Below are positions 33,476 through 63,602 of a stretch of DNA of 64,000 nucleotides, in pieces. Source of the stretch: a virus (taxonomy: Duplodnaviria > Heunggongvirae > Uroviricota > Caudoviricetes); IMG/VR virus record IMGVR_UViG_2861084961_000001, one strand, 5' to 3'. Positions within the stretch are counted from its first letter, which is position 1; each line of letters begins with the position of its first letter. Under the pieces are notes generated by a model. It made no database searches and was not told the origin of the DNA. It saw only the letters and a list, made by a program, of their open reading frames with translations. A program made the translations under genes and the position numbers.

Positions 33476-33635
33476 AGCAAAAGCCTACTTTAAAGAGAGT
33501 TTAAAGTAGGCTTTCTTTTAAAGAACAGTCGCCTTTCAATCATTTCCTGCCTGTATTTAATACTTTTCCGCCTGATAGGTTTAGTCAAAATATAGCCATC
33601 GAAACGCAAATGTAACCAAACAGAAGGAGACTTAC

Positions 33636-43758: not shown

Positions 43759-44228
43759 GTGAGATTAACTACCTGGCGTTACGTGAGCGTTATTCACCAA
43801 AACCAGCGCCTAGATGCTCTGTTTGTGGCGAGGAAATGTCAATACAGCGCATATCTGGAGCACATGTCGTTTATGCCTGCTCCGGTGAGGGTGATGACGG
43901 ATATTTTAAGATAGGACGTACTTTTGCAGACGAACATTATGAAAAATCACGCGTAACAGTAGTTGATGATAGTGATCCCGATGTGATTGCACTGCTGGAA
44001 GAACTGGATAAAAGACGACATTACATCGGACGTCTTGAGCAGGAGAACGTAGAGATGGCCCTAACGCTTGAGAAGCTGCGTGTTGAGATGAAGGCAGCCA
44101 AATCAAAACTCAACGAGCAGCGTGAGTATTACGAAGGTGTTATCTCGGATGGAAGCAAGCGCATAGCCGCTCTTCTTTGCAAGGACAATCTTGTCAGCAC
44201 CACGAACATTGAAGGTGAAAGAAGATGA
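43755..44228 (+). CDS. hypothetical protein (157 aa) with N-terminal CxxC...C cluster and coiled coil
   Basis: ORF track. Confidence 0.4.
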
Positions 44229-44548
44229 CCACATCGCATTCTGCTATTACCCAGGAAAAAGCCTTCAACATACTCGAACGACTAGAGACGCTCGCTACGG
44301 AGGAGGAGATATCCCTGGAGAAACTGGTTGAGTTCAGCCGTGTGATATTGCGTCGCAAGAACGATATGGAGCGGCTGACATCTGGCGCTCCATCCTTATC
44401 AGCCAGGCGAACACTTTGTTGCAGCTTCTGCAACAAATCCCAGTACGCCGTCAAAAAGTTAATTGCTGGGGACGCCGTTTTCATCTGCGACGAGTGTGTG
44501 GATGTGTGCAACAGAATTATCCGGGGAGAGAAAGAGGGATCAGCATGA
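44225..44548 (+). CDS. small protein with ClpX-type zinc-binding domain at C-terminus
   Basis: [35 protein letters not shown] matches the ClpX N-terminal C4 zinc-finger pattern. Confidence 0.5.
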
Positions 44549-45096
44549 AATTTTCCAAATTTTCTGAGTCGGTGAATCGTATTTTGTCCAACAACCACAG
44601 CCATCGTCGCGATATGGATGTAACGATCGTTGTTCATTCGCCTGGTCGCATCGGTTCAACACCATCAGTTGAGGTTCAGTCAATTCAGGCGGGTTTTGAT
44701 TGGGATGCCGGGCAAGTGATGATTTTTCCAGCACAGCCACTGACCACGCTAACACCGGAGCAGGTTGCTGATATTACTGAAAGTGTGCACAAAGGCCAGT
44801 CATGGCACGCGTATCAGGAATACAAGAAGCATAAAGAGCAGTTGGAAAAATTGTCGATGGAGTTGGAAGCCGCTAAACAGAGGGAAAAAGATCTGTTTAT
44901 GGAAAATGTTCGACTTAAGTCAGGTATAGCCGGTCTGATACACCTCGGTATTCGATATGCGGATGTCGAGGTCATGAAAATAGCTGGAGATGCCCAGCTT
45001 TCTACTCCCTGTACTGACAGCATCATAAACAGTATTGCATCAGGCGTTTTCACCAAAGAGGGTCAGCATGATGAGAACAGTAGAAGTTCGCGCTGA
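44545..45096 (+). CDS. hypothetical protein (183 aa)
   Basis: Internal ATG 44545 overlapping upstream stop inside track ORF 44416..45096. Confidence 0.4.
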
Positions 45097-48227: not shown

Positions 48228-49328
48228 TCACACTGCGCGGAATGCGATTTCGCCAGGTATTACTTCACCTTGCCAATACATTTGGGCAGCAACGCGATCT
48301 GCGAGGTCACGATAAATAGCCGTAAATTCGCTATCTGGACGACTAATAACGGTTGGTGTTCCGTTATCCAGATCCTCACGAAGAGAGATATGAAGTGGCA
48401 TTTGGCCTAACAACTGCGTGTTGTATTTCTCGGCCAGTTTCTGTGCGCCACCGGTGCCAAAAATTGGCTCGTGATGACCGCAGTTACTGCAAATATGCAC
48501 ACTCATGTTTTCGACGATACCTAGTACCGGCACTTCGACTTTTTCGAACATCACAATGCCTTTCTTCGCATCGATCAGCGCGATGTCTTGCGGCGTAGTT
48601 ACCACAACCGCACCAGTTACAGGAATGTTCTGCGCCAGCGTCAATTGAATATCACCAGTGCCCGGCGGCATATCGAGAACGAGATAGTCCAGATCAGGCC
48701 ACAGTGTTTCCTGCAACATCTGCATCAGCGCCTTGCTGGCCATCGGTCCACGCCACACCATTGCATTGTCGTCGGTGACCAGATAACCAATAGAGTTGGT
48801 TGCCAGGCCATGAGACATGATAGGTGCCATGTGAGTACCGTCCGGTGAGGTTGGACGTTGGTTTTCCGCACCCAGCATGGTTGGAATTGATGGACCGTAG
48901 ATATCGGCATCCAAAATACCAACTTTCGCACCTTCAGCAGCCAACGCCAGTGCCAAGTTTACTGCTGTGGACGATTTGCCTACACCGCCCTTGCCTGAGC
49001 TGACGGCGATGATGTTCTTAACGCCATTAATGCCTGGTTGGTTTTTGACGCGCTTAAGCGTGGCAATGTTGTACGACAGCTTCCAGTCGATAGCCTTTGC
49101 GCCAGTGATACGGAGCAGATCACCACTACATTGCTCTTTCAGGTCTTCAAAAGGCTTATTCCACACGAAAGGCATGATTAGTTCGACATGCAGTGTGTCA
49201 TCCATCAACGCAACATGGTGTAACGCTTTAAGCGTAGTCAGGTTGTGCTTCAGGGTTGGGTGCTGAAAATTAGCCAGCGTACCGGCTACCATTGCTCTCA
49301 GGGCATCCGGCGATTTGGACTCGCTCAT
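48228..49328 (-). CDS. mrp: Mrp/ApbC Fe-S cluster carrier ATPase, intact, host-type
   Basis: 366 aa; deviant Walker A SSGKGGVGKSSTAVNLA, CxxC motif; near-identical to recalled E. coli Mrp. Confidence 0.9.
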   Translation of the reverse strand: MSESKSPDALRAMVAGTLANFQHPTLKHNLTTLKALHHVALMDDTLHVELIMPFVWNKPFEDLKEQCSGDLLRITGAKAIDWKLSYNIATLKRVKNQPGINGVKNIIAVSSGKGGVGKSSTAVNLALALAAEGAKVGILDADIYGPSIPTMLGAENQRPTSPDGTHMAPIMSHGLATNSIGYLVTDDNAMVWRGPMASKALMQMLQETLWPDLDYLVLDMPPGTGDIQLTLAQNIPVTGAVVVTTPQDIALIDAKKGIVMFEKVEVPVLGIVENMSVHICSNCGHHEPIFGTGGAQKLAEKYNTQLLGQMPLHISLREDLDNGTPTVISRPDSEFTAIYRDLADRVAAQMYWQGEVIPGEIAFRAV

Positions 49329-49485
49329 CCCGTCTCCTTTATTTTAATTTGCGCAATTGTCGCCTTGTAGTGTACTCCAGCTACGACATTTAATCATTTA
49401 TGAGAAATGCTGTTATCACATGGCAGACATAAGGCCATTTTGTTACTATCAAGCCCCTTTTCACTACAAAGAAGTAATGCCTACT

Positions 49486-51519
49486 ATGACCCAAGTCGCG
49501 AAGAAAATTCTGGTGACGTGCGCGCTGCCGTACGCTAACGGCTCAATCCACCTCGGCCATATGCTGGAGCACATCCAGGCTGATGTCTGGGTTCGTTACC
49601 AGCGAATGCGCGGCCACGAGGTTAATTTCATCTGTGCCGACGATGCCCACGGTACGCCGATCATGCTGAAAGCACAGCAGCTTGGTATCACACCGGAACA
49701 GATGATTGGCGAAATGAGCCAGGAACACCAGACTGATTTCGCAGGCTTTAACATCAGCTATGACAACTATCACTCGACGCACAGCGAAGAGAACCGCCAG
49801 CTGTCTGAGCTTATCTATACTCGCCTGAAAGAGAACGGTTTTATTAAAAACCGCACTATCTCTCAGTTGTACGACCCGGAAAAAGGCATGTTCCTGCCGG
49901 ATCGTTTTGTGAAAGGCACCTGTCCGAAATGTAAAGCGCCAGATCAATACGGCGATAACTGTGAAGTTTGCGGCGCGACCTACAGCCCGACTGAACTGAT
50001 TGAGCCGAAATCGGTAGTTTCTGGCGCTACGCCGGTAATGCGTGATTCTGAACACTTCTTCTTTGATCTGCCCTCTTTCAGCGAAATGTTGCAGGCATGG
50101 ACCCGCAGCGGTGCGTTGCAGGAGCAGGTGGCAAACAAAATGCAGGAGTGGTTTGAATCTGGTCTGCAACAGTGGGATATCTCCCGCGACGCACCTTACT
50201 TCGGTTTTGAAATTCCGAACGCGCCGGGTAAATATTTCTACGTCTGGCTGGACGCACCGATTGGCTACATGGGTTCCTTCAAGAATCTGTGCGACAAGCG
50301 CGGCGACACTACCAGCTTCGATGAATACTGGAAGAAAGACTCCACCGCCGAGCTGTACCACTTCATCGGTAAAGATATCGTTTACTTCCACAGCCTGTTC
50401 TGGCCTGCCATGCTGGAAGGCAGCAACTTCCGCAAGCCGACCAACCTGTTTGTTCACGGCTATGTGACGGTGAACGGCGCGAAGATGTCCAAGTCTCGCG
50501 GCACCTTTATTAAAGCCAGCACCTGGTTGAATCATTTTGACGCTGACAGCCTGCGTTACTACTACACCGCCAAACTGTCTTCGCGCATTGATGATATCGA
50601 TCTCAACCTGGAAGATTTCGTTCAGCGCGTGAATGCCGATATCGTGAACAAAGTGGTTAACCTGGCCTCCCGTAATGCGGGCTTTATCAACAAACGTTTT
50701 GACGGCGTGCTGGCAAGCGAACTGGCTGACCCGCAACTGTACAAAACCTTTACTGATGCCGCTGAAGTGATTGGCGAAGCATGGGAAAGCCGCGAATTTG
50801 GTAAAGCTATCCGTGAAATCATGGCATTGGCTGACCTGGCTAACCGCTATGTCGATGAACAGGCTCCGTGGGTGGTGGCGAAGCAGGAAGGACGCGATGC
50901 CGATCTGCAGGCGATTTGCTCTATGGGCATTAACCTGTTCCGCGTGCTGATGACTTACCTGAAACCGGTACTGCCGAAACTGACAGAACGTGCGGAAGCA
51001 TTCCTCAATACGGAACTGACCTGGGATGGCATCCAGCAACCGCTGCTGGGCCATAAAGTGAATCCGTTCAAAGCACTGTATAACCGTATCGACATGAAAC
51101 AGGTGGAAGCATTGGTGGAAGCGTCTAAAGAAGAAGTGAAAGCTACTGCCGCGCCAGTTACTGGCCCGCTGGCAGACGACCCGATTCAGGAAACCATCAC
51201 CTTTGACGACTTTGCCAAAGTTGACCTGCGCGTGGCGCTGATCGAAAACGCAGAGTTTGTTGAAGGTTCTGACAAACTGCTGCGCCTGACGCTGGATCTC
51301 GGCGGTGAAAAACGTAATGTCTTCTCAGGCATCCGTTCCGCTTATCCAGACCCACAGGCACTGATTGGCCGTCACACCATTATGGTGGCTAACCTGGCTC
51401 CGCGTAAAATGCGTTTCGGTATCTCCGAAGGCATGGTGATGGCTGCTGGCCCCGGCGGGAAAGACATCTTCCTGTTAAGCCCGGATGCTGGTGCTAAACC
51501 TGGCCACCAGGTTAAGTAA
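49486..51519 (+). CDS. metG: methionyl-tRNA synthetase, intact, host-type
   Basis: [29 protein letters not shown] (HIGH-type), KMSKS, C-terminal tRNA-binding domain; start at ATG 49486 inside track ORF 49357..51519. Confidence 0.95.
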
Positions 51520-51680: not shown

Positions 51681-51980
51681 ATGTTGAACATTACCCAAGC
51701 CTACCAGGTGGCATTGATCAGTTCATCTCATACATCAGAGGAAGATGCTCGCCGATTCATGATCGCAAGCAATGAGCTGGATTGGGTTTCGCAAATTGAC
51801 GGCGGTTGTATTGTCCACGCCGGGTTACAGGATGATGTCTGGAAAGACGACTTGCGTCGATATGGTATATCCGAAGGCGCGATTGCTAACATTCAGAAAG
51901 TACTTGATGTAGGCTTTGACTCTGTACATTTTGATTGTGGTGCGCCGGTCGTTGAAGGGCTTGAGTGCTGGAACTGGTAA
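51681..51980 (+). CDS. hypothetical protein (99 aa)
   Basis: ATG 51681 within track ORF 51672..51980; motif-B sites upstream. Confidence 0.4.
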   Translation: MLNITQAYQVALISSSHTSEEDARRFMIASNELDWVSQIDGGCIVHAGLQDDVWKDDLRRYGISEGAIANIQKVLDVGFDSVHFDCGAPVVEGLECWNW

Positions 51981-52025
51981 CAGATATTAAAGCATTGGTA
52001 GTTTGTTTTTAGGATTATCAAAGAA

Positions 52026-52759
52026 ATGAAAAAGTTGAAAAGTTTAGAAATCCCTGGGACTGGTTATAAATTCTTTATGGACAACGCGGAGTGTGCGCCT
52101 AACGCGTTGGAAAAAATACAAAGTCTTATCAACAGCCTTACTGAAGAAGCGAAAGAACTGAAGAGCGAGGCGACAAAGGACAATACAGCTAAAATCCAAT
52201 GCTTAAATCTCGTCTCTTATTGTTTATATCAAGTATCCAAAACACTGATTAAAGGCAATATCTATTACGACGATGAAGACACCTCGACACCTGAAGAAAA
52301 GATAGCGATGAAGAACTCTATGAAGATATCTCTACTAGTGCGGGTCACGCTGCCTTCGATGCTATGGGTAAATCGTCAGGCATCAGATCATTTGTTGAAC
52401 AGAACAATTCGACAATAATGATTGAGTACTGTGAACAAACAAGCTCCAAGGCCATACATGTTCTTCACGATGTTGCTGCAGGGGTTCGTTGTGAGGCTGA
52501 AGCGGTAAGAAAAGATGTATTTGGTGCAGACAGTAATACCGTGAAAGCGTTTATCAACAGTGCTCTGCTAAATTCTTACTCAAACCTTATAGTCAATGCG
52601 GCACTATGCGCAAATTCAGGTGAAGAACACATTGTCATAACCGAAACCAAACATGAGCATCAACAGTCACCAACCATAGAAGAGGTAACTGCATTGGCTA
52701 TCAAACAGGCGAGTGAAATTAGTGATGAAATTCTCTCTCTGCTAAACAAAACTAGGTAA
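52026..52759 (+). CDS. hypothetical protein (ORFs 52026..52418 and 52364..52759, probably one gene)
   Basis: ORF track; overlapping frames. Confidence 0.35.
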
Positions 52760-56954: not shown

Positions 56955-57570
56955 CTGAGAAGAGGGCCAGAAACGGCCCTTTCTCTATAGCCACCAGCTG
57001 CCGCAGGGAAATTTTCAGAAACGGCGAGGAACGTATTCATGAGCCGACGGGAAACGGCCAGGATTTTTTTCGGGAAACGGCTGTATTCGCCTTTATGTAG
57101 AAAAACATCGGGAAGCTGGTGGAATCCAACCAGCGGTTGTCGGACAGGTGAGCGGGGAAAATTATAATGACTTTCGTCGCCTGAGACATCCAGATTTCTT
57201 TCGTAGCATAATCACATACGTGATTAAGTGGTGTGATTATGTGAAAAATCACGCGCACATAATACGCGATCGGACACAGAACAAAACAAAATGCCGATCC
57301 GCACCGACAAATACACGCTGATCACATAGCAAGACTAAAAGCCAATGATTAACCATACTCTATAGCGCAATATAACGCGCTTTAAGCGCGTTAATGTGTT
57401 AAGTAATGGGTATGTACTGGCGAGGATATAAAAGCGCGACTATGGCGTTATTTTGGCGCTTATTTTTATGTTGTTGGAGTGAGTTAAAGACAATAAATAA
57501 CGCGCCAATGATGGCGCGTTATGGTGGGAGTATTGGAAACGAAAAAAGCGCCCATAGTGGGCGCTCGATT

Positions 57571-57798
57571 TTATTTATGTAAACTGATTTCAAATCCCAT
57601 TTCTACGAACGCTTTTAACATTAAAAATATATCAGCGTCGTTCACGTCTGCTTTTTTTCGCTCCTGGTCGCTCAATAAGTCAATTTTGCGCGTCGTTTCA
57701 TCTATAAGCTCAACAGATCCAGCGTAACCAGCGATCCCAGCAATATCATTAACACAATATTCATTGTGGACGTTAACGCCAGCGATAAGAACAAACAT
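57571..57798 (-). CDS. hypothetical protein (75 aa)
   Basis: ORF track; followed on minus strand by hairpin AGCGCCCA-TAG-TGGGCGCT and T-run. Confidence 0.35.
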   Translation of the reverse strand: MFVLIAGVNVHNEYCVNDIAGIAGYAGSVELIDETTRKIDLLSDQERKKADVNDADIFLMLKAFVEMGFEISLHK

Positions 57799-57819
57799 GA
57801 TTAAGCTCCTTAAAAAAAA

Positions 57820-58023
57820 TTAAATAGAATTTTGAAGTTTTCCGATTAATGCGCTTAAGCGTAAGTATTCACGTTTGCGCTTGCAATCTCGCTTGCTGTT
57901 AAGCAAATCAGAAAACGTAAAATTTAATTGGTCGCGTTGCGCGATCAAATCATCGATTAATTCCAGTTTGTAAGCGCGATACTTTGCGCGATATTCCGCG
58001 CGGATCTTGTCATAGCTGACCAT
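57820..58023 (-). CDS. hypothetical protein (67 aa)
   Basis: ORF track; strong AAGGAG RBS. Confidence 0.35.
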   Translation of the reverse strand: MVSYDKIRAEYRAKYRAYKLELIDDLIAQRDQLNFTFSDLLNSKRDCKRKREYLRLSALIGKLQNSI

Positions 58024-58070
58024 TTTAAAGCTCCTTTAAAGCGCCCATAGTGGGCGCTTGATTCCATTAA

Positions 58071-58720
58071 TTACGCTTTGAAAGCATCAGCTAGATAATT
58101 GTAGAAATCATTCTTGATAAAGCGATATTGCTGCGTACCAGCTTTGGCGCTTCCCATTCCTTTGACTTTCTCAACAAGTCCAAGACGTTCGCAAAGATTG
58201 ATCAACTGGTTGGCTTGAGTATAGCCAGCGTCCAATTTAATTTCGCACGCTTTTTTAGCTTCATTCATCAAATCGAAAACAGCGCCATTAGTGAACGTGT
58301 CGATCTCGTCGTTAATCATATCGATTAAAGCGAATACACGAGATCCAGACATATCAGCGACGGAATAAACACATTTACCAGCTTTAATGGATTTAACCAG
58401 ATAAACCAGTTTTCCAGTGAATAACTATTAGTCATAGCATCACGGAAAAATACTTCTGGCGCTTGTTTGCTTGCTTTAATCGCATAGTAGAAAACAGAGC
58501 ATAATTTTTCGTCTTCTACAGCGTTTACAACGTTGTTGATGAAGTAAGCAAGTTTAGTGGTCGCAGCTTGCATATTTGCTTTGTCTGCTTTAGTGTGCGT
58601 ACCATTTTTATAATGTTCGTTATATGTTTGAGTTGCCAGATCTGCTTTTTCGCGCAGCTCGTCGGATACAATAGATGCAGCTTCAATGATGGACTTTTTA
58701 GAAATGATAATGTTAGCCAT
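58071..58720 (-). CDS. hypothetical protein (ORFs 58325..58720 and 58071..58352, probably one gene)
   Basis: ORF track; overlapping frames. Confidence 0.35.
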
Positions 58721-59001
58721 GATAATTTTTCCTTATGTAAATTTAAAATTTATTGTCGTTAGCGTCTTCGCTTTCGACGAGTTCAATTATCGATATGCGA
58801 AAAAAGATTGCAAGTATTTTTTTTAAATTTTTTGCAGGGATGAAAGTCCTAGAAATAAAAGCGAGATCGTCGAAGGTGTTCCCTAAATAAATAATCGATT
58901 CCGGCTTTCGACCTTATATATTTAGGTTGTTTGATTTATAGATATAAAGAAGTGATGTGAAAAATAATAACCGGACTTAGCCGGTTATTAACCTTATAGA
59001 T

Positions 59002-59310
59002 TTATTGAACAGACTCTACAGCCTTACGATTGGTGTCAAATAGCGCATCAACGAACTGTGCCGATGACTCGCTAGATTCGCAATCCAACATTGCCCGTTC
59101 TTCATTTGCCACTTTCTTACACAGTTCCACATTCTCACCTATCGCTTTTCCTGCTTTTACGGCTGCCGAAAATTGATACATGCAAACTGATACATTCTGA
59201 GATGTTGAGCACACGTCATTCATCAGCGACTGAATGACAGGCTTATAGTCCATTGCATTTGCTGCAACTGAGCAAAGTAAAAAAAATGGTGGTAACAATA
59301 TCGATTTCAT
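59002..59310 (-). CDS. secreted Cys-containing small protein with signal peptide
   Basis: MKSILLPPFFLLCSVAANA signal-like N-terminus. Confidence 0.4.
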   Translation of the reverse strand: MKSILLPPFFLLCSVAANAMDYKPVIQSLMNDVCSTSQNVSVCMYQFSAAVKAGKAIGENVELCKKVANEERAMLDCESSESSAQFVDALFDTNRKAVESVQ

Positions 59311-59353
59311 AACTCAAAAAGGCAAAATTCGCTCAACCCAATCGAACAAATAA

Positions 59354-59836
59354 CTATTTTTCTACCGTTCTCGACACGTAGTGTAACCTGACAAGCATCT
59401 GCGCCTGCTGACACCCCTCAATTTCACGGCCATCCGCCATGTACACTCTTATAGATTTGTTTGCTTTATAGGCTTGGTTGCAAATAGCAAAAAAATCGCG
59501 GCGTGATGGCCGATTATCGACATAATCAGGATGAACTGTTAATCGACCTTTGAAATCGTGAGCGATACTGTCAACCACACCTGATTCAATTGTACTAATG
59601 CGTTCAAGTGGGAGCCTTATACGATTTTCTTTGTCAAAAGGGGCTGGGCAAAGGTCAACTTTGTTACGAGATGGCATGAGGCCATAAACGTACATGCAAA
59701 ACGCCTGGCCATCTTCCAGAGTGGCCCTTACAGGAATTTGTTCTCTGCGCCAGAACATCAGTAGTTTTTCAACGTTAGTGTAATCTCGCGGCCAGAGTTC
59801 AGCTTGGATACCGTAGGTAATATCTTTGGTTGTCAT
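59354..59836 (-). CDS. hypothetical protein (160 aa)
   Basis: Internal ATG 59836 directly after the upstream stop inside track ORF 59354..59914. Confidence 0.4.
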   Translation of the reverse strand: MTTKDITYGIQAELWPRDYTNVEKLLMFWRREQIPVRATLEDGQAFCMYVYGLMPSRNKVDLCPAPFDKENRIRLPLERISTIESGVVDSIAHDFKGRLTVHPDYVDNRPSRRDFFAICNQAYKANKSIRVYMADGREIEGCQQAQMLVRLHYVSRTVEK

Positions 59837-59840
59837 GTCA

Positions 59841-60305
59841 TCACAGAGTTGTTGGCAGAATGTCGATGTCGCCAGAATTGCTGGTGAACACCCTGAACGC
59901 TTTTGTGTCTCCATTCTTCAGAGTCGTTTCTCGCTCTTGACGAGCGGGGTTTAGAGCACATAAACCTGCACCTTCAAGAGATGCACCCACAATTAATTCT
60001 CCGGCATTTAAATGGAAAGTCGCTTTTTCGCCTGTAGCCAGTTTTGCGACAGTTTCGCCGTTGATGAAAATGGAAGCATCACATCCAGCTCCTACAAAAC
60101 CTGTGTCTCTCATTACCACCAACGTAGCTGGCGCTGCGCTTTGATACTTGAACACTTTGGCCTGCGGTGCTGGTTTGGCGTCATGGATTGATATTGGGCG
60201 TGATTGGCACGCGGTAAGCATCAACACTGGTAACGTTAGTAGAGGGAGAAGCGAGTATTTCATGATAGTTTTAGAACAGAAAGTGAACAGTATGGGAGAC
60301 TTCAT
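59841..60305 (-). CDS. lipoprotein (lipobox LTAC), Gly/Ala-rich beta-type
   Basis: MKYSLLPLLTLPVLMLTAC signal with lipobox; RBS AGGGAGA before ATG 60305. Confidence 0.5.
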   Translation of the reverse strand: MKSPILFTFCSKTIMKYSLLPLLTLPVLMLTACQSRPISIHDAKPAPQAKVFKYQSAAPATLVVMRDTGFVGAGCDASIFINGETVAKLATGEKATFHLNAGELIVGASLEGAGLCALNPARQERETTLKNGDTKAFRVFTSNSGDIDILPTTL

Positions 60306-60331
60306 CTTTGTCTCCCTAATTGATAGCGTGA

Positions 60332-60610
60332 TTATTTTAATCTGCTTAATAGCGTTTCGAGATCTTCCTTTGTCATATTAGAGTTCTCATAGATACGCAT
60401 GATTTTCTCACGAGTCTTAGCGGAAGCCCCGACAGAAGATATAACCTTGTCAAAGTCGGCCATTGTCAATTGTTCCAGAATGGTATTTATGACTTCAGCC
60501 TTAGACATTTTGATATTTTTTTCTTTTAGTTTCACTTGAAACTTTCCAAGTTTGTCATTGGCCTTATCAGACAATGCTACCTGACAGTAAGTTGTTTTCT
60601 TTTCACTCAT
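60332..60610 (-). CDS. hypothetical protein (92 aa)
   Basis: ORF track. Confidence 0.4.
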   Translation of the reverse strand: MSEKKTTYCQVALSDKANDKLGKFQVKLKEKNIKMSKAEVINTILEQLTMADFDKVISSVGASAKTREKIMRIYENSNMTKEDLETLLSRLK

Positions 60611-60612
60611 AA

Positions 60613-62172
60613 CTAATCTCGTTTCAGAACCCCAAAATCGAATGCTCCATCAATAGGCAATACACCTTCTGCAAAGCCAGGTGTGGTGTCGATGATGTGT
60701 TTTCGCTCATAAGAGTGAGACAACAGGTATTTGTTGCTAATGTCAATGAAATCAGTGATAAAACACACGTTTGCCTGATTTTTTTTGGCTCGTAAGCCAC
60801 GACCGACACGCTGTCTCATTTCAACTTCTGCTTTCCCACCACCAGCAAGAATGACCGCACCAACGCTTGGCACATCAACACCAACATCCAGAATAGTCGA
60901 GCCTATTAAAACATCTATTTCACCAGACGCTAAACTGTTCAGCTTTGCTTGCCTTGTCGTCTGGTTAGATTCCCCATAGATGAAATCAACTCTAAGACCT
61001 GACTCCTTCATCATCTCCATCAGGATTTGCCCGTGGCGTTTAAGACGAACCAGAGTCATGCAGTTGAGTGAATGTTGCTTATAAAGCAATGCCTCGCGCA
61101 CTATGGCCTCGTTACGTCCCAAATTATACACGATCCCCAACTGATAAGCCTTTTGGTAGGCGGTGCTCATACCAACTCTAAAATTGAGGTGTTTGTTGGC
61201 AAGTTCGGCCTTGATTCTGGCCTCGTCTGGTTTGTAGGCAACTTTATGATAAAGGAAGTACGGCTTTGCCAGAATGCCTCGATCAATCAGGTACTTTTCT
61301 GTGACTTTAATTTCAATTCGCCCGGCCACCGCCATCAGGCGCATGTTGGCTTCCGTCGAATCCTTCATGAACGGCGTGGCTGTAAGCGCCAGACGATAGT
61401 CTGCGTTCACACATAATCTGGCGATGTCATAGAAATTTGAGCCTGAAGACTCATGCGCCTCTTCCAGAATAAGAAGAGAGACACTTGAAAGGAAGCGTTT
61501 CACCAACTCCCGACGTTTGAGGTGGTAGCTCTTCTTATCTGGAGTTGCATCGCGTGGTGGTTCTTCAAGGAAACTTGCCAGAGTTTGAACTGTAGCGACG
61601 TTGATATGTCGTGATACCTGGAACTCACCCGAGCCAATTACTCCAACCTTTTGGTCTTTTAACCACGGTTCGCCATTTTCGGCGCGGTAGTCGATGGATC
61701 TCTGGAAGTTTTCGGCCATCTGAAACATCAGAACAGAGCGGGTTGTTAAAAATAATGTCATTCGACCGATACGTGCAGCTGCTTTGCAGGCAACATTAGA
61801 TTTCCCGCCACCAGTAGCGATCTGCGCAATCATCATTCCCTCGCGAACTAGCGTTTCCACAGTCTGATCCTGATACGCATAATCAGGATTGTATGGGAAT
61901 GGGTTAACCGCCGGATTTGGCTTTCCAAGCGCCGGGGCTTTGTCTTTGCGGATATGAACACATTTGATGCCCGCCTTGTTCAAGTTCGCCGCTACAGGCT
62001 TGGCAAAGCCAGCAGGGAACGAGTTTTTACTCCAGTTGAACATTGTGCTTGTGCCCTTCCAGTCGCCAGTCTCGACTTCGTAGCTCAACATCTGTTGCAC
62101 CAGTTGCTTTACCTTGTCATCTGCGCCAGAAATAAGCGCATTAACTGCGTTAGATACAATCCGAACAGTCAT
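60613..62172 (-). CDS. superfamily-2 DNA/RNA helicase
   Basis: Motif I ATGGGKS, motif II LEEAH, motif III TATP, motif VI QRVGRGLR; 519 aa intact. Confidence 0.7.
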   Translation of the reverse strand: MTVRIVSNAVNALISGADDKVKQLVQQMLSYEVETGDWKGTSTMFNWSKNSFPAGFAKPVAANLNKAGIKCVHIRKDKAPALGKPNPAVNPFPYNPDYAYQDQTVETLVREGMMIAQIATGGGKSNVACKAAARIGRMTLFLTTRSVLMFQMAENFQRSIDYRAENGEPWLKDQKVGVIGSGEFQVSRHINVATVQTLASFLEEPPRDATPDKKSYHLKRRELVKRFLSSVSLLILEEAHESSGSNFYDIARLCVNADYRLALTATPFMKDSTEANMRLMAVAGRIEIKVTEKYLIDRGILAKPYFLYHKVAYKPDEARIKAELANKHLNFRVGMSTAYQKAYQLGIVYNLGRNEAIVREALLYKQHSLNCMTLVRLKRHGQILMEMMKESGLRVDFIYGESNQTTRQAKLNSLASGEIDVLIGSTILDVGVDVPSVGAVILAGGGKAEVEMRQRVGRGLRAKKNQANVCFITDFIDISNKYLLSHSYERKHIIDTTPGFAEGVLPIDGAFDFGVLKRD

Positions 62173-62217: not shown

Positions 62218-62237
62218 ATAAGTAAGTGATTACTTAG
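62218..62237. promoter_or_regulatory. motif A palindrome (ATAAGTAA-GTGA-TTACTTAG) in the divergent helicase / ParB-like promoter region
   Basis: Between 62172 (minus-strand start) and 62255 (plus-strand start). Confidence 0.4.
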
Positions 62238-62254
62238 TGGATTGTAGCAATAAA

Positions 62255-62935
62255 ATGGATGTAAAAATCACGATTTTGCAGGTTGATGTTGCCAACCTTC
62301 GCCCGAATACCTGGAACACCAATTCGGTTGGTGCGCAGAATTTTGAAAAACTGAAAGGTTCTATCGAAAAATTGGGCTTTTTTAAGCCAATTTTGGCTCG
62401 TGAACTTGAAGATGGATTTTTTGAAATCCTCGGCGGCGAACATCGCTGGCGTGCCGCTATTGAGCAAGGAATTTCAATGGTTCCAGTGCTTTCTGTGGGC
62501 AAAATTAGCGATGTCGTAGCTAAACAGATGTCACTGGTGGACAACGAGCGATACGGTGAAGACGACCAAATCGCATTGCAACGCTTCATTGAAGAAATTC
62601 AGTCAGAACTTGACTATCAACTGTCTGAAATCGCCCCGTATGACGACGAAATCTCGATGGTTTTAGCAAAAGAGGCGGCAATCGACCTTGAAGCACTGGA
62701 GGCGTTGTCTCGTGGTAGTGATGAGCCTGTCGATACCGACAAACGAGAGAAAACCGAACGTGTGGGGGCGGAACATCAGACCATGCGCTTCAAAGTAACT
62801 TTCGATGCGTCAGATCGTGTTGCAGAAACCATAAAAAACATCATCAAAGAGCAGGCTATTAACACCGGTAATGAAATGGAGAACGCTGGTGAGGCTCTGG
62901 TGTGGCTGGTCGACTACTACAAGGAGCGTATGTAA
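62255..62935 (+). CDS. ParB/Srx-fold nuclease-domain protein
   Basis: LRPNTWNTN...GFFKPILARELEDGFFEILGGEHRWRAAIEQGISMVPV; ATG 62255 within track ORF 62237..62935. Confidence 0.55.
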   Translation: MDVKITILQVDVANLRPNTWNTNSVGAQNFEKLKGSIEKLGFFKPILARELEDGFFEILGGEHRWRAAIEQGISMVPVLSVGKISDVVAKQMSLVDNERYGEDDQIALQRFIEEIQSELDYQLSEIAPYDDEISMVLAKEAAIDLEALEALSRGSDEPVDTDKREKTERVGAEHQTMRFKVTFDASDRVAETIKNIIKEQAINTGNEMENAGEALVWLVDYYKERM

Positions 62936-63602
62936 TGACCAAAAAGTTTGAAATCGTATATCGCGACCCGGCAGATCTTATTCCCTATGAGATGAATGCC
63001 AAAAAGCATGATGAACAGCAGATCCGAGATCTGGCCGCAGCCATTAAAAGCGCGGATTTGACCAGCCAATTACGGTCGATAAGAACGACGTAATTATTAC
63101 TGGCCACGGCCGCCGTGAGGCTGCAATTTTTGCTGGACTTGAGCGCGTACCGGTTATTGTTCGCGATGATCTCAGTGATGACGAGGTTCGTGCGAAGCGC
63201 CTTGAAGATAACCGACTTGCCAGCATTGATTACGATGCAATTAAGCTACAGAAAGAACTTGAGTCGCTTGTTCTGGACGATATCGAGGTTTTCGGCTTTG
63301 AAGAGCGGGAGTTGAATGTTCTCGTTGGCAGCATGACAGAAGAAATGGACACCGACTCGCTAGTTATCGATCTGGGCGAAGAAACTAAACGACAGAAGGA
63401 TGAACACACCGAGATCAGTCGTGAAGTTGCAGCGGAAGAAGTACGTGTTGTCGACGTATTGGGCTTTAAAACGCTCCCTGCTGGCTCTGCCATTGTTGTT
63501 GGTGATTTGCTTGCCCACATGGAAGAAATGACGGGAGAAAGCGGGGTAGACGCATTTGTGGCATATGCGGAGAAGATCTCTTCCGGGGAGATGGCTGCAT
63601 GA
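62935..63602 (+). CDS. second ParB-like domain protein (frameshift near 63050)
   Basis: IVYRDPADLIPYEMNAKKHDEQQIRDLAAAIKSA then, in the other frame, FDQPITVDKNDVIITGHGRREAAIFAGLERVPVIV. Confidence 0.5.

Follow-up and report, generated by a model that had tools for sequence, protein, structure and literature searches.

An SSU5-type phage-plasmid segment with a FljA-like gene and exchangeable envelope-protein genes in a probable plasmid-state operon

The region described here is a minus-strand gene module at positions 57571-62172 of a 64-kb stretch of viral DNA (IMG/VR record IMGVR_UViG_2861084961_000001), the whole of which is called the window; the module had been singled out in a preliminary description made from the sequence. 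The module is probably a standard segment of an SSU5-type phage-plasmid, made up of two transcription units, in which cargo genes have been inserted into a backbone operon of the plasmid state. This reading builds on gene content, the pattern of conservation, terminator and promoter motifs and the expression of the backbone in one relative, while the biochemical functions named below are predictions throughout. In the mechanism that we propose, unit A would be a backbone operon that is transcribed in the plasmid state of the element and into which two "moron" cargo genes would have been inserted, one for an outer-membrane-type lipoprotein before a FljA-like gene and one for a periplasmic, helical Cys protein after it. 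Riding on the transcription of unit A, the cargo genes would place their products in the envelope of the lysogen, where these most likely alter the dealings of the cell surface with incoming phages or with the environment, and the FljA-like protein most likely works like FljA, as an RNA-binding post-transcriptional repressor. Unit B would start from its own promoter-like site, stay nearly silent in the lysogen of a relative, and end at a zone of hairpins and convergent terminators.

Clinical Enterobacteriaceae commonly carry SSU5-type phage-plasmids, and the region occurs in hundreds of Klebsiella plasmids. Since a relative has been shown to transcribe this stretch, among others, as a lysogen, the effect of the element on its host may be sought among the genes of the region. 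The locus is already annotated publicly with the labels "putative repressor of phase 1 flagellin", "lipoprotein" and "helicase", and in the literature we have found no functional study of the locus, nor one linking SSU5 or pHCM2 with FljA or motility. What is added here is a corrected gene map, the division into backbone and cargo, a warning of sequencing errors and a testable hypothesis on the orphan FljA homologue. The last of these is the lead worth an experiment, as it asks whether a widespread phage-plasmid can switch off flagellin.

Identity and Distribution of the Element

Between positions 57000 and 63000 the window has been found to be 97.7% identical at the nucleotide level to Escherichia phage CMS-2020a, ∼95% identical to PhiR41_1 and Cyrano, and 80% identical to Salmonella phage SSU5, and the nearest record found for the region is the Escherichia albertii plasmid pEA26_1 (98.7% identity). 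Based on this high identity and on a gene order equal to that of recognised members, we assign the window to an SSU5-type phage-plasmid, and elements of this type have been sampled very well. The region is present in 250 of 5,426 complete E. coli genomes (∼5%), always plasmid-borne and never chromosomal, and in 780 plasmids of PLSDB, including 304 from Klebsiella, 228 from Escherichia, 92 from Enterobacter, 62 from Yersinia and 49 from Salmonella.

Backbone and Cargo

Intact proteins were compared between the window and 16 related loci, 14 of which were compared by tblastn and two of which, Klebsiella vB_KpnS_p4727 and the plasmid unnamed2 of K. pneumoniae hvKP859, were added; the set includes SSU5, Cyrano, PhiR41_1, CMS-2020a, Yersinia pestis pMT1 and elements of Buttiauxella, Kluyvera and Klebsiella. 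Wherever a locus reaches far enough, a divergent ParB-like gene, the helicase gene, the gene of a small protein (p92), the FljA-like gene and a gene of family phrog_1513 are always present, and the lipoprotein, the Cys protein and two small proteins, p67 and p76, have been observed in some lineages only. The form with empty slots is seen in hvKP859 unnamed2 (locus L022, 2961-6495), where the helicase, a p92 homologue (116 amino acids (aa), 35% identical), a FljA-like protein that shares 29% identity with FljA of Salmonella, and a phrog_1513-like protein are encoded together with no cargo. From this pattern of presence we assign helicase, p92, FljA-like and phrog_1513 genes to the backbone, and regard the lipoprotein and Cys protein genes as swappable cargo in two slots.

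Lipoproteins from an unrelated family occupy the slot that follows p92 in Cyrano, in PhiR41_1 and in one relative of metagenomic origin, and in PhiR41_1 this slot contains a secreted protein in addition. In Klebsiella pJN2-26, distant homologues of the lipoprotein and of the Cys protein (28 and 27% identical) flank a FljA-like gene that is 79% identical, and the exported proteins consequently evolve much faster than their neighbour. Nearly identical helicases (synonymous divergence, dS, of 0.05-0.13) accompany FljA-like alleles that differ by a nonsynonymous divergence (dN) of 0.15-0.25 (the window and loci L001, L004, L016 and L017), and we therefore regard the stretch that comprises p92, the slot and the FljA-like gene (59314-60610) as a recombination mosaic. 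Specificity or immunity determinants are known to behave in a similar way.

Two Transcription Units

The five genes from the helicase through p92, lipoprotein and FljA-like protein to the Cys protein are separated by spacers of only 2, 26, 4 and 3 nucleotides (nt), and a ∼245-nt gap parts the terminator region behind the Cys gene from the genes that follow (Table 1). The terminator itself is a strong one and is 97.7% conserved even in SSU5. On these grounds we distinguish two predicted transcription units, unit A running from 62172 to 59002 (helicase to Cys gene) and unit B comprising phrog_1513, p67 and p76. The preliminary description had taken the whole module for one reverse-strand operon led by a helicase, encoding a lipoprotein, a signal-peptide protein with four Cys and several small proteins, and ending in a hairpin cluster. 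The leading helicase, both exported proteins and the hairpin cluster, with its two terminator-like hairpins, have been recovered by domain, motif and fold analysis, and the single operon gives way to two units on account of the internal terminator, the gap and the promoter-like site behind it. The pairing of the helicase with envelope proteins, which had been left unexplained, becomes understandable if helicase and p92 are backbone genes that are active in the plasmid state and their transcription unit has taken up the cargo genes.

Expression data are available from RNA sequencing of E. coli LF82 carrying Cyrano, given as log2 values with a floor of 2.32 (PMC9928086, S1 Table). The Cyrano helicase reaches 5.0-8.4, and the p92 homologue CYRAN_117, which is listed there as a moron 12x above the local background, reaches 6.3-9.9; the FljA-like gene lies at 4.2 in LB medium and ∼8 in macrophages, and the lipoprotein in the slot of Cyrano rises up to 9.4 (PMC9928086). 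The phrog_1513 homologue stays at 2.3-3.9 with 5.6 only at 6 h in macrophages, and the divergent (first) ParB gene remains at the floor and is thus silent in the lysogen (PMC9928086). The division into two units agrees with these values, with the backbone of unit A expressed in the lysogen and unit B nearly silent, and the promoter-like site of unit B is consistent with the differing expression of the genes on its two sides.

Several observations weigh against the proposed reading. The expression data come from a relative with a different cargo slot, in which the FljA-like gene is parted from p92 by a gene on the opposite strand, and co-transcription of the lipoprotein, FljA-like and Cys genes of the window with the helicase is suggested by spacing alone. 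Promoter-consensus matches number 15, which does not stand out from the 11.5 +/- 3.2 obtained with shuffled sequence, and the consensus scan has revealed no good -35 element upstream of the helicase. Fold searches have been uninformative for the two envelope proteins and have yielded a function for neither. Finally, if the frameshifts discussed below were real, the FljA-like and phrog_1513 genes would be inactive in this element.

Envelope Proteins

The lipoprotein matches phrog_890 (E 1e-51) and carries the lipobox L-T-A-C at residues 30-33 after a hydrophobic segment, with Gln at position +2 and a Cys that is invariant in homologues, in agreement with the bacterial lipoprotein signal-peptide pattern [LVI][ASTVI][GAS]C. 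Its true length is probably 140 aa, with the start at the second Met (60263) as in most homologues. A match to DUF2846 (PF11008) has been set aside, since its 17.8 bits lie below the gathering cut-off of 34.3. The Cys protein possesses a cleavable signal peptide (…AANA, cut before MD) and a mature part with four Cys, three of which are invariant in homologues, and its family is tiny, with 12 clusters that all lie on contigs of phage-plasmid size. Searches of both proteins have returned no sequence relative in the PDB and no PADLOC match, and virion structural or lysis families, which had been looked for among all proteins of the module, are matched by none.

Lipoproteins of phrog_890 also occur in temperate phages of the lambdoid, Pseudomonas and Vibrio groups (including Vibrio anguillarum). 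In the HK97-like lambdoid phages mEp390 (locus L019, 3920-4366) and CharmingMan (L020, 3456-3866) we have observed 38%-identical homologues between K-like and I-like tail genes, just upstream of a J-like tail-fibre gene.

Circumstantial support exists for both envelope proteins being accessory factors expressed by the lysogen: their slots are variable within a conserved backbone, unrelated exported proteins occupy the same slot elsewhere, and the slot lipoprotein of Cyrano is transcribed; the position of lipoprotein homologues beside a tail-fibre gene in HK97-like phages lends further support. A more specific role, in which the lipoprotein, the Cys protein or both would act in superinfection exclusion or receptor masking and shield the lysogen from related or other phages, deserves to be kept in mind, yet we judge it rather unlikely. 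Export, accessory status and fast evolution of both proteins would fit such a role, as would the repeated filling of the slot with lipoproteins of unrelated families, the transcription of one of them in lysogeny, and the placement of phrog_890 homologues next to tail genes, which recalls Llp and Cor. Against it stand the lack of a match to any PADLOC model, the large distance of both genes from the tail genes in this element, and the receptor of SSU5, the lipopolysaccharide core, which a protein can hardly mask.

The FljA-Like Gene

The product of the gene between the two cargo slots is a member of the FljA family (PF03614, Flag1_repress), which it matches with an E-value of 2.8e-67 and 226 bits against a cut-off of 24, together with a match to phrog_1444, and it is 36% identical to Salmonella FljA and collinear with it over the full length (residues 1-171). 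In the window the gene appears as an open reading frame (ORF) at 59354-59914, and the real start is the ATG at 59836, 4 nt past the stop of the lipoprotein gene. The preliminary description had not recognised this ORF as a FljA homologue.

The family is very small: 1.84 billion representative proteins, scanned exhaustively with HMMER, have given only 24 matches, and the full-length groups among these consist of phage-plasmid proteins and of Salmonella FljA itself. Among 50,697 phage records, full-length matches are confined to 12 SSU5-like records, accompanied by two short partial matches in small fragments. PLSDB holds 833 matches, including 344 from Klebsiella and 62 from Yersinia, and in 824 of the 833 a single unbroken match spans 80% or more of the protein. 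A scan of genome collections for relatives has reached six phage-plasmid-like loci, chromosomal fljA lying beyond the reach of that scan. The gene has a ratio of nonsynonymous to synonymous substitution (dN/dS) of ∼0.1, indicative of purifying selection, which includes the Klebsiella and Y. pestis lineages, and several divergent alleles exist within one host species.

No flagellin gene has been detected by tblastn in the 64-kb window, and none is annotated in positions 1-50,000 and 68,000-114,713 of pEA26_1, and the gene does not form part of an alternative-flagellin operon of the fljB or flkA type. A search for a target resembling the fliC leader on the element has returned matches of 10-13 nt at chance level only. 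A 12-nt exact match (GAGCCGACGGGA-like) to the 5' untranslated region of E. coli fliC lies at window position 57040-57051 (+); it is kept in relatives and, with an E-value of ∼1 in a small search, is probably due to chance.

We read the FljA-like protein best as an RNA-binding regulator intrinsic to the element and always paired with p92, for which any action on fliC of flagellate hosts would be secondary. Klebsiella and Y. pestis are non-flagellate hosts. As the gene is an orphan, belongs to the core and resides in non-flagellate hosts, its main target is more probably to be sought among the mRNAs of the element itself, or among host mRNAs that are broadly conserved, than in fliC alone. That plasmids of Klebsiella and Y. 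pestis have kept the gene speaks against fliC being its only target.

An alternative is that the protein acts as a lysogenic-conversion factor, which would block translation of the host fliC mRNA and leave lysogens with less flagellin; the payoff could be escape from flagellotropic phages or from detection by TLR5/NLRC4, or a saving of energy. We consider this alternative, including the proposed payoff, unlikely on present grounds. The fliC leader is expected to be uniform within a species, and the divergent alleles found within one species are hard to reconcile with such a target; moreover, E. coli LF82, the carrier of Cyrano, is flagellate and motile. The absence of a partner flagellin gene from the window and from the examined parts of pEA26_1 counts against it as well, and so does the purifying selection that maintains the gene in Y. 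pestis pMT1 and in K. pneumoniae, where hundreds of phage-plasmids carry it. In addition, the identity of 36% to FljA falls far below the at least 67% seen among true repressors (PMC2652032). What speaks for flagellin as the target, besides family membership and full-length collinearity, is the action of true FljA, which has been found to be post-transcriptional on fliC, with a fljA(z66) plasmid turning motile E. coli non-motile (PMC2652032). The homologue in Cyrano rises ∼16-fold in macrophages, and repression of host fliC by a phage-encoded factor has a precedent in TldR (PMC13418256).

The family has no solved structure, and the protein shows no significant sequence match in the PDB. In profile comparisons with hhalign, the N- and C-terminal halves of the family (alignment A6) match each other with an E-value of 0.003 and the Sm1 region of Hfq with E-values of 0.007 and 0.12, all in one register and over 24-25 columns. 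This is a weak hint at a tandem Sm-like RNA-binding fold, to be taken as a lead only. Within the FljA family, diversity is deepest among the members from phage-plasmids, and one may speculate that the family is native to SSU5-type phage-plasmids as an RNA-binding repressor paired with p92, possibly tandem Sm/Hfq-like, and that the Salmonella repressor is a captured copy, a scenario to which we give little credence at present. Even then, the plasmid-borne FljA might still silence host flagellin in lysogens of flagellate hosts.

Frameshifts and Corrected Gene Models

Aligned with pEA26_1, the window contains 39 one-base deletions and 6 insertions, nearly all of them in runs of 3-7 identical bases. 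The deletions break 21 of the 57 coding sequences common to both, including thyA, the gene of dihydrofolate reductase (DHFR), rnhA (RNase H) and sbcCD-like genes, and are spread over positions 19500-64000 of the window (e.g., 21162, 22113, 23386, 29876, 31431, 36182, 58409, 59347, 59413 and 63045). Within the module two genes are affected. ORFs of 131 and 93 aa match positions 1-107 and 124-216 of one and the same profile, phrog_1513, and owe their separation to the loss of one base from an A5 run at 58409; two further one-base deletions in homopolymers, at 59413 and 59347, garble the C-terminus of the FljA-like protein, as seen in a base-level comparison with relatives, so that the last ∼33 residues in the window are out-of-frame sequence when aligned with intact homologues. 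Two of the small proteins of the preliminary description, those of 131 and 93 aa, are consequently halves of one 216-aa gene.

By a wide margin, these indels are most likely due to homopolymers having been under-called in the source assembly, given that the same type of deletion breaks 21 of 57 genes while identity is otherwise 98-99%. The biology has therefore been described from the intact gene models of relatives, and since the under-calling is likely to extend over the whole window, readings of the window that are based on ORFs need caution. That the module is instead decaying in this element, with real inactivating mutations in the FljA-like and phrog_1513 genes, appears very unlikely: the indels do stand in the sequence as given, yet damage of the same kind hits genes of nucleotide metabolism and recombination all along an otherwise closely matching sequence, deletions outnumber insertions in the biased manner given above, and both genes are intact in the annotated close relatives examined.

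Helicase, p92 and the Genes of Unit B

The first gene of unit A encodes a superfamily 2 (SF2) helicase, which exceeds the Pfam cut-offs for ResIII (55 bits, cut-off 22.5), DEAD (54 bits, cut-off 26) and Helicase_C (49 bits, cut-off 23.5), and in which motifs I (GGGKS), II (EEAH, DExH-type), III (TAT) and VI (QRVGRGLR) are recognised. It matches phrog_16 (E 4.5e-93) and, in the PDB, archaeal XPBII (E 1.7e-12) and T4 UvsW (2oca, E 5e-8). Conservation is exceptional, with 81-100% identity across all relatives and a dN/dS of ∼0.02, and its relatives are replication-module helicases of large phages. As the element also encodes a DnaB-like helicase, a primase and DnaE, alongside a ligase, among its own replication genes, the SF2 helicase would remodel DNA rather than drive replication, and a role in recombination or fork remodelling is a reasonable inference. 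Orthology to UvsW, as annotated in Cyrano, is not supported, because full-length similarity including the N-terminal DNA-binding domain is lacking and XPBII scores better; likewise, NCBIfam matches of the helicase have been discarded as far below their cut-offs. We consider it highly improbable that the helicase drives a defence against phages of the PbeA or Dnd-restriction kind with the downstream genes as its partners, since the weak PADLOC matches to PbeA (E 6e-23) and the TIGR04095 match (59.6 bits vs a cut-off of 600) cover generic helicase domains only, the gene is a universally conserved backbone gene under very strong constraint whose kin serve phage replication, and the downstream proteins match no defence model, PADLOC having revealed no defence system and no partner genes among all proteins of the module and the alternative slot cargo.

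The small protein p92 is found in every relative, down to 35% identity in a divergent Klebsiella phage-plasmid, and has no match in Pfam or, by single sequence or profile, in the PDB. A ribbon-helix-helix-like pattern may be discerned by eye, which is a lead and not a confirmed assignment. In unit B, the phrog_1513 gene has a dN/dS of 0.01-0.11, mostly 0.04-0.10, indicating purifying selection, and its product has no significant sequence match in the PDB. The label "MIT family metal ion transporter" attached to p67 is implausible, as p67 is a soluble protein of 67 aa.

A copy of the first hairpin of the terminal cluster (57546-57566) has been found at 58040-58060, between phrog_1513 and p67. 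It belongs to a 34-nt direct repeat, 57545-57578 and 58038-58071 (88% identical), which holds the terminator hairpin AGCGCCCATAGTGGGCGCT and flanks the p67-p76 cassette; since some relatives are without either p67 or p76, the hairpin may mark an exchange junction of this cassette. ORFs on the + strand inside the region match no phage family and no + strand gene is supported, and scans of the region with Rfam and for tRNA (ARAGORN) have found nothing.

Table 1. Coordinates of the genes and signals of the module in the window.
Feature	Position	Strand	Remarks
SF2 helicase (DExH, XPB/UvsW-like), 519 aa	60613-62172	(-)	first gene of unit A; backbone
p92, small conserved protein (phrog_1466)	60332-60610	(-)	backbone; phrog_1466 E 5e-46
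Small beta-sandwich lipoprotein (phrog_890), 154-aa ORF	59841-60305	(-)	cargo 1; slot between p92 and FljA-like gene
FljA-family protein (Pfam Flag1_repress), true product 174 aa	59314-59836	(-)	backbone; PF03614
Secreted three-helix periplasmic Cys protein (phrog_9536), 102 aa	59002-59310	(-)	cargo 2; last gene of unit A
Intrinsic terminator, end of unit A	58965-58990	(-)	10-bp GC-containing stem and U-run, directly 3' of Cys gene
Promoter-like site of unit B, TTGCAA-16-GATAAT	58786-58813	(-)	consensus scan only
phrog_1513 gene, 216 aa in relatives	58071-58720	(-)	two-ORF profile match; intact in relatives; backbone
p67 (phrog_6145)	57820-58023	(-)	presence variable among relatives
p76 homologue, 75 aa in window (phrog_1585)	57571-57798	(-)	presence variable among relatives
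Hairpin cluster/convergent terminator zone	57252-57566	(-)	fold z-score -3.7
Terminator-like hairpins in cluster	57546-57566 and 57497-57522	(-)	3' of last ORF; unit B ends at 57546-57566
Further hairpins in cluster	57373-57393 and 57252-57309	(-)	

Elsewhere in the Window

Divergent from the promoter region of the helicase, two successive genes for ParB N-terminal domains are followed by ABC-type ATPase genes (62237-63600, +). According to the annotation of pEA26_1, the window also contains apbC/mrp (iron-sulfur carrier, 48228-49328, -) and metG (methionyl-tRNA ligase, 49357-51519, +), housekeeping genes on a phage-plasmid that are presumably host-derived. A breakpoint relative to pEA26_1 at ∼33617-33621 corresponds to an ISEc38 insertion in pEA26_1 that is absent from the window, and the segments 44087-44860 and 51980-52758 have no counterpart in pEA26_1.

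Comparison With Known Systems

The closest counterparts are the same locus in SSU5 (SSU5_119-124), Cyrano, PhiR41_1, CMS-2020a, Salmonella Typhi pHCM2 and Y. pestis pMT1, with nucleotide identities to the window of 80-98.7% and a shared order of divergent ParB-like genes, helicase, p92, slot, FljA-like gene, slot, phrog_1513 and small genes. SSU5 and pMT1 have the same lipoprotein as the window, whereas Cyrano and PhiR41_1 carry other genes in its place, and SSU5, pMT1 and Cyrano are without the Cys protein. The homopolymer indels are a feature of the window copy that sets it apart from these relatives.

Regarding the envelope proteins, phages are known to encode exclusion proteins such as Llp of T5 and Cor of phi80/N15/HK022, which are lipoproteins, and Spackle of T4, a small periplasmic helical protein. 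The module resembles these in encoding small exported proteins of a phage, one of which belongs to a lipoprotein family found beside tail-fibre genes in some phages, but neither envelope protein matches proteins of the Llp, Cor or Spackle type in sequence or fold. The helicase shares the SF2 core and its motifs I-VI with T4 UvsW and archaeal XPB, its best solved relatives. The alignments are confined to this core and, in the case of UvsW, to residues 338-485 in the C-terminal domain, and the N-terminal 95 residues of the helicase are without a match.

Regarding the FljA-like protein, FljA of Salmonella (flagellar phase variation by fljBA-hin), of the plasmid pBSSB1 and of E. coli flagellin islands belongs to the same PF03614 family and is collinear with it over the full length, including a shared C-terminal block (PSRRDFF…IRVYM…G…ACQV…FDWV.RI). 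Unlike these counterparts, the gene is unlinked to flagellin or an invertase, is a core gene of phage-plasmids and is present also in hosts without flagella. The TldR-fliC modules of prophages, which repress host flagellin in an RNA-guided manner (PMC13418256), offer a further parallel, as here too a temperate element brings a regulator that could act on host flagellin. TldR is unrelated in protein and mechanism, and its modules carry a replacement flagellin gene where this element has none. If silencing by the plasmid-borne FljA were true, it would constitute a second, protein-based route by which phages control flagella, alongside TldR.

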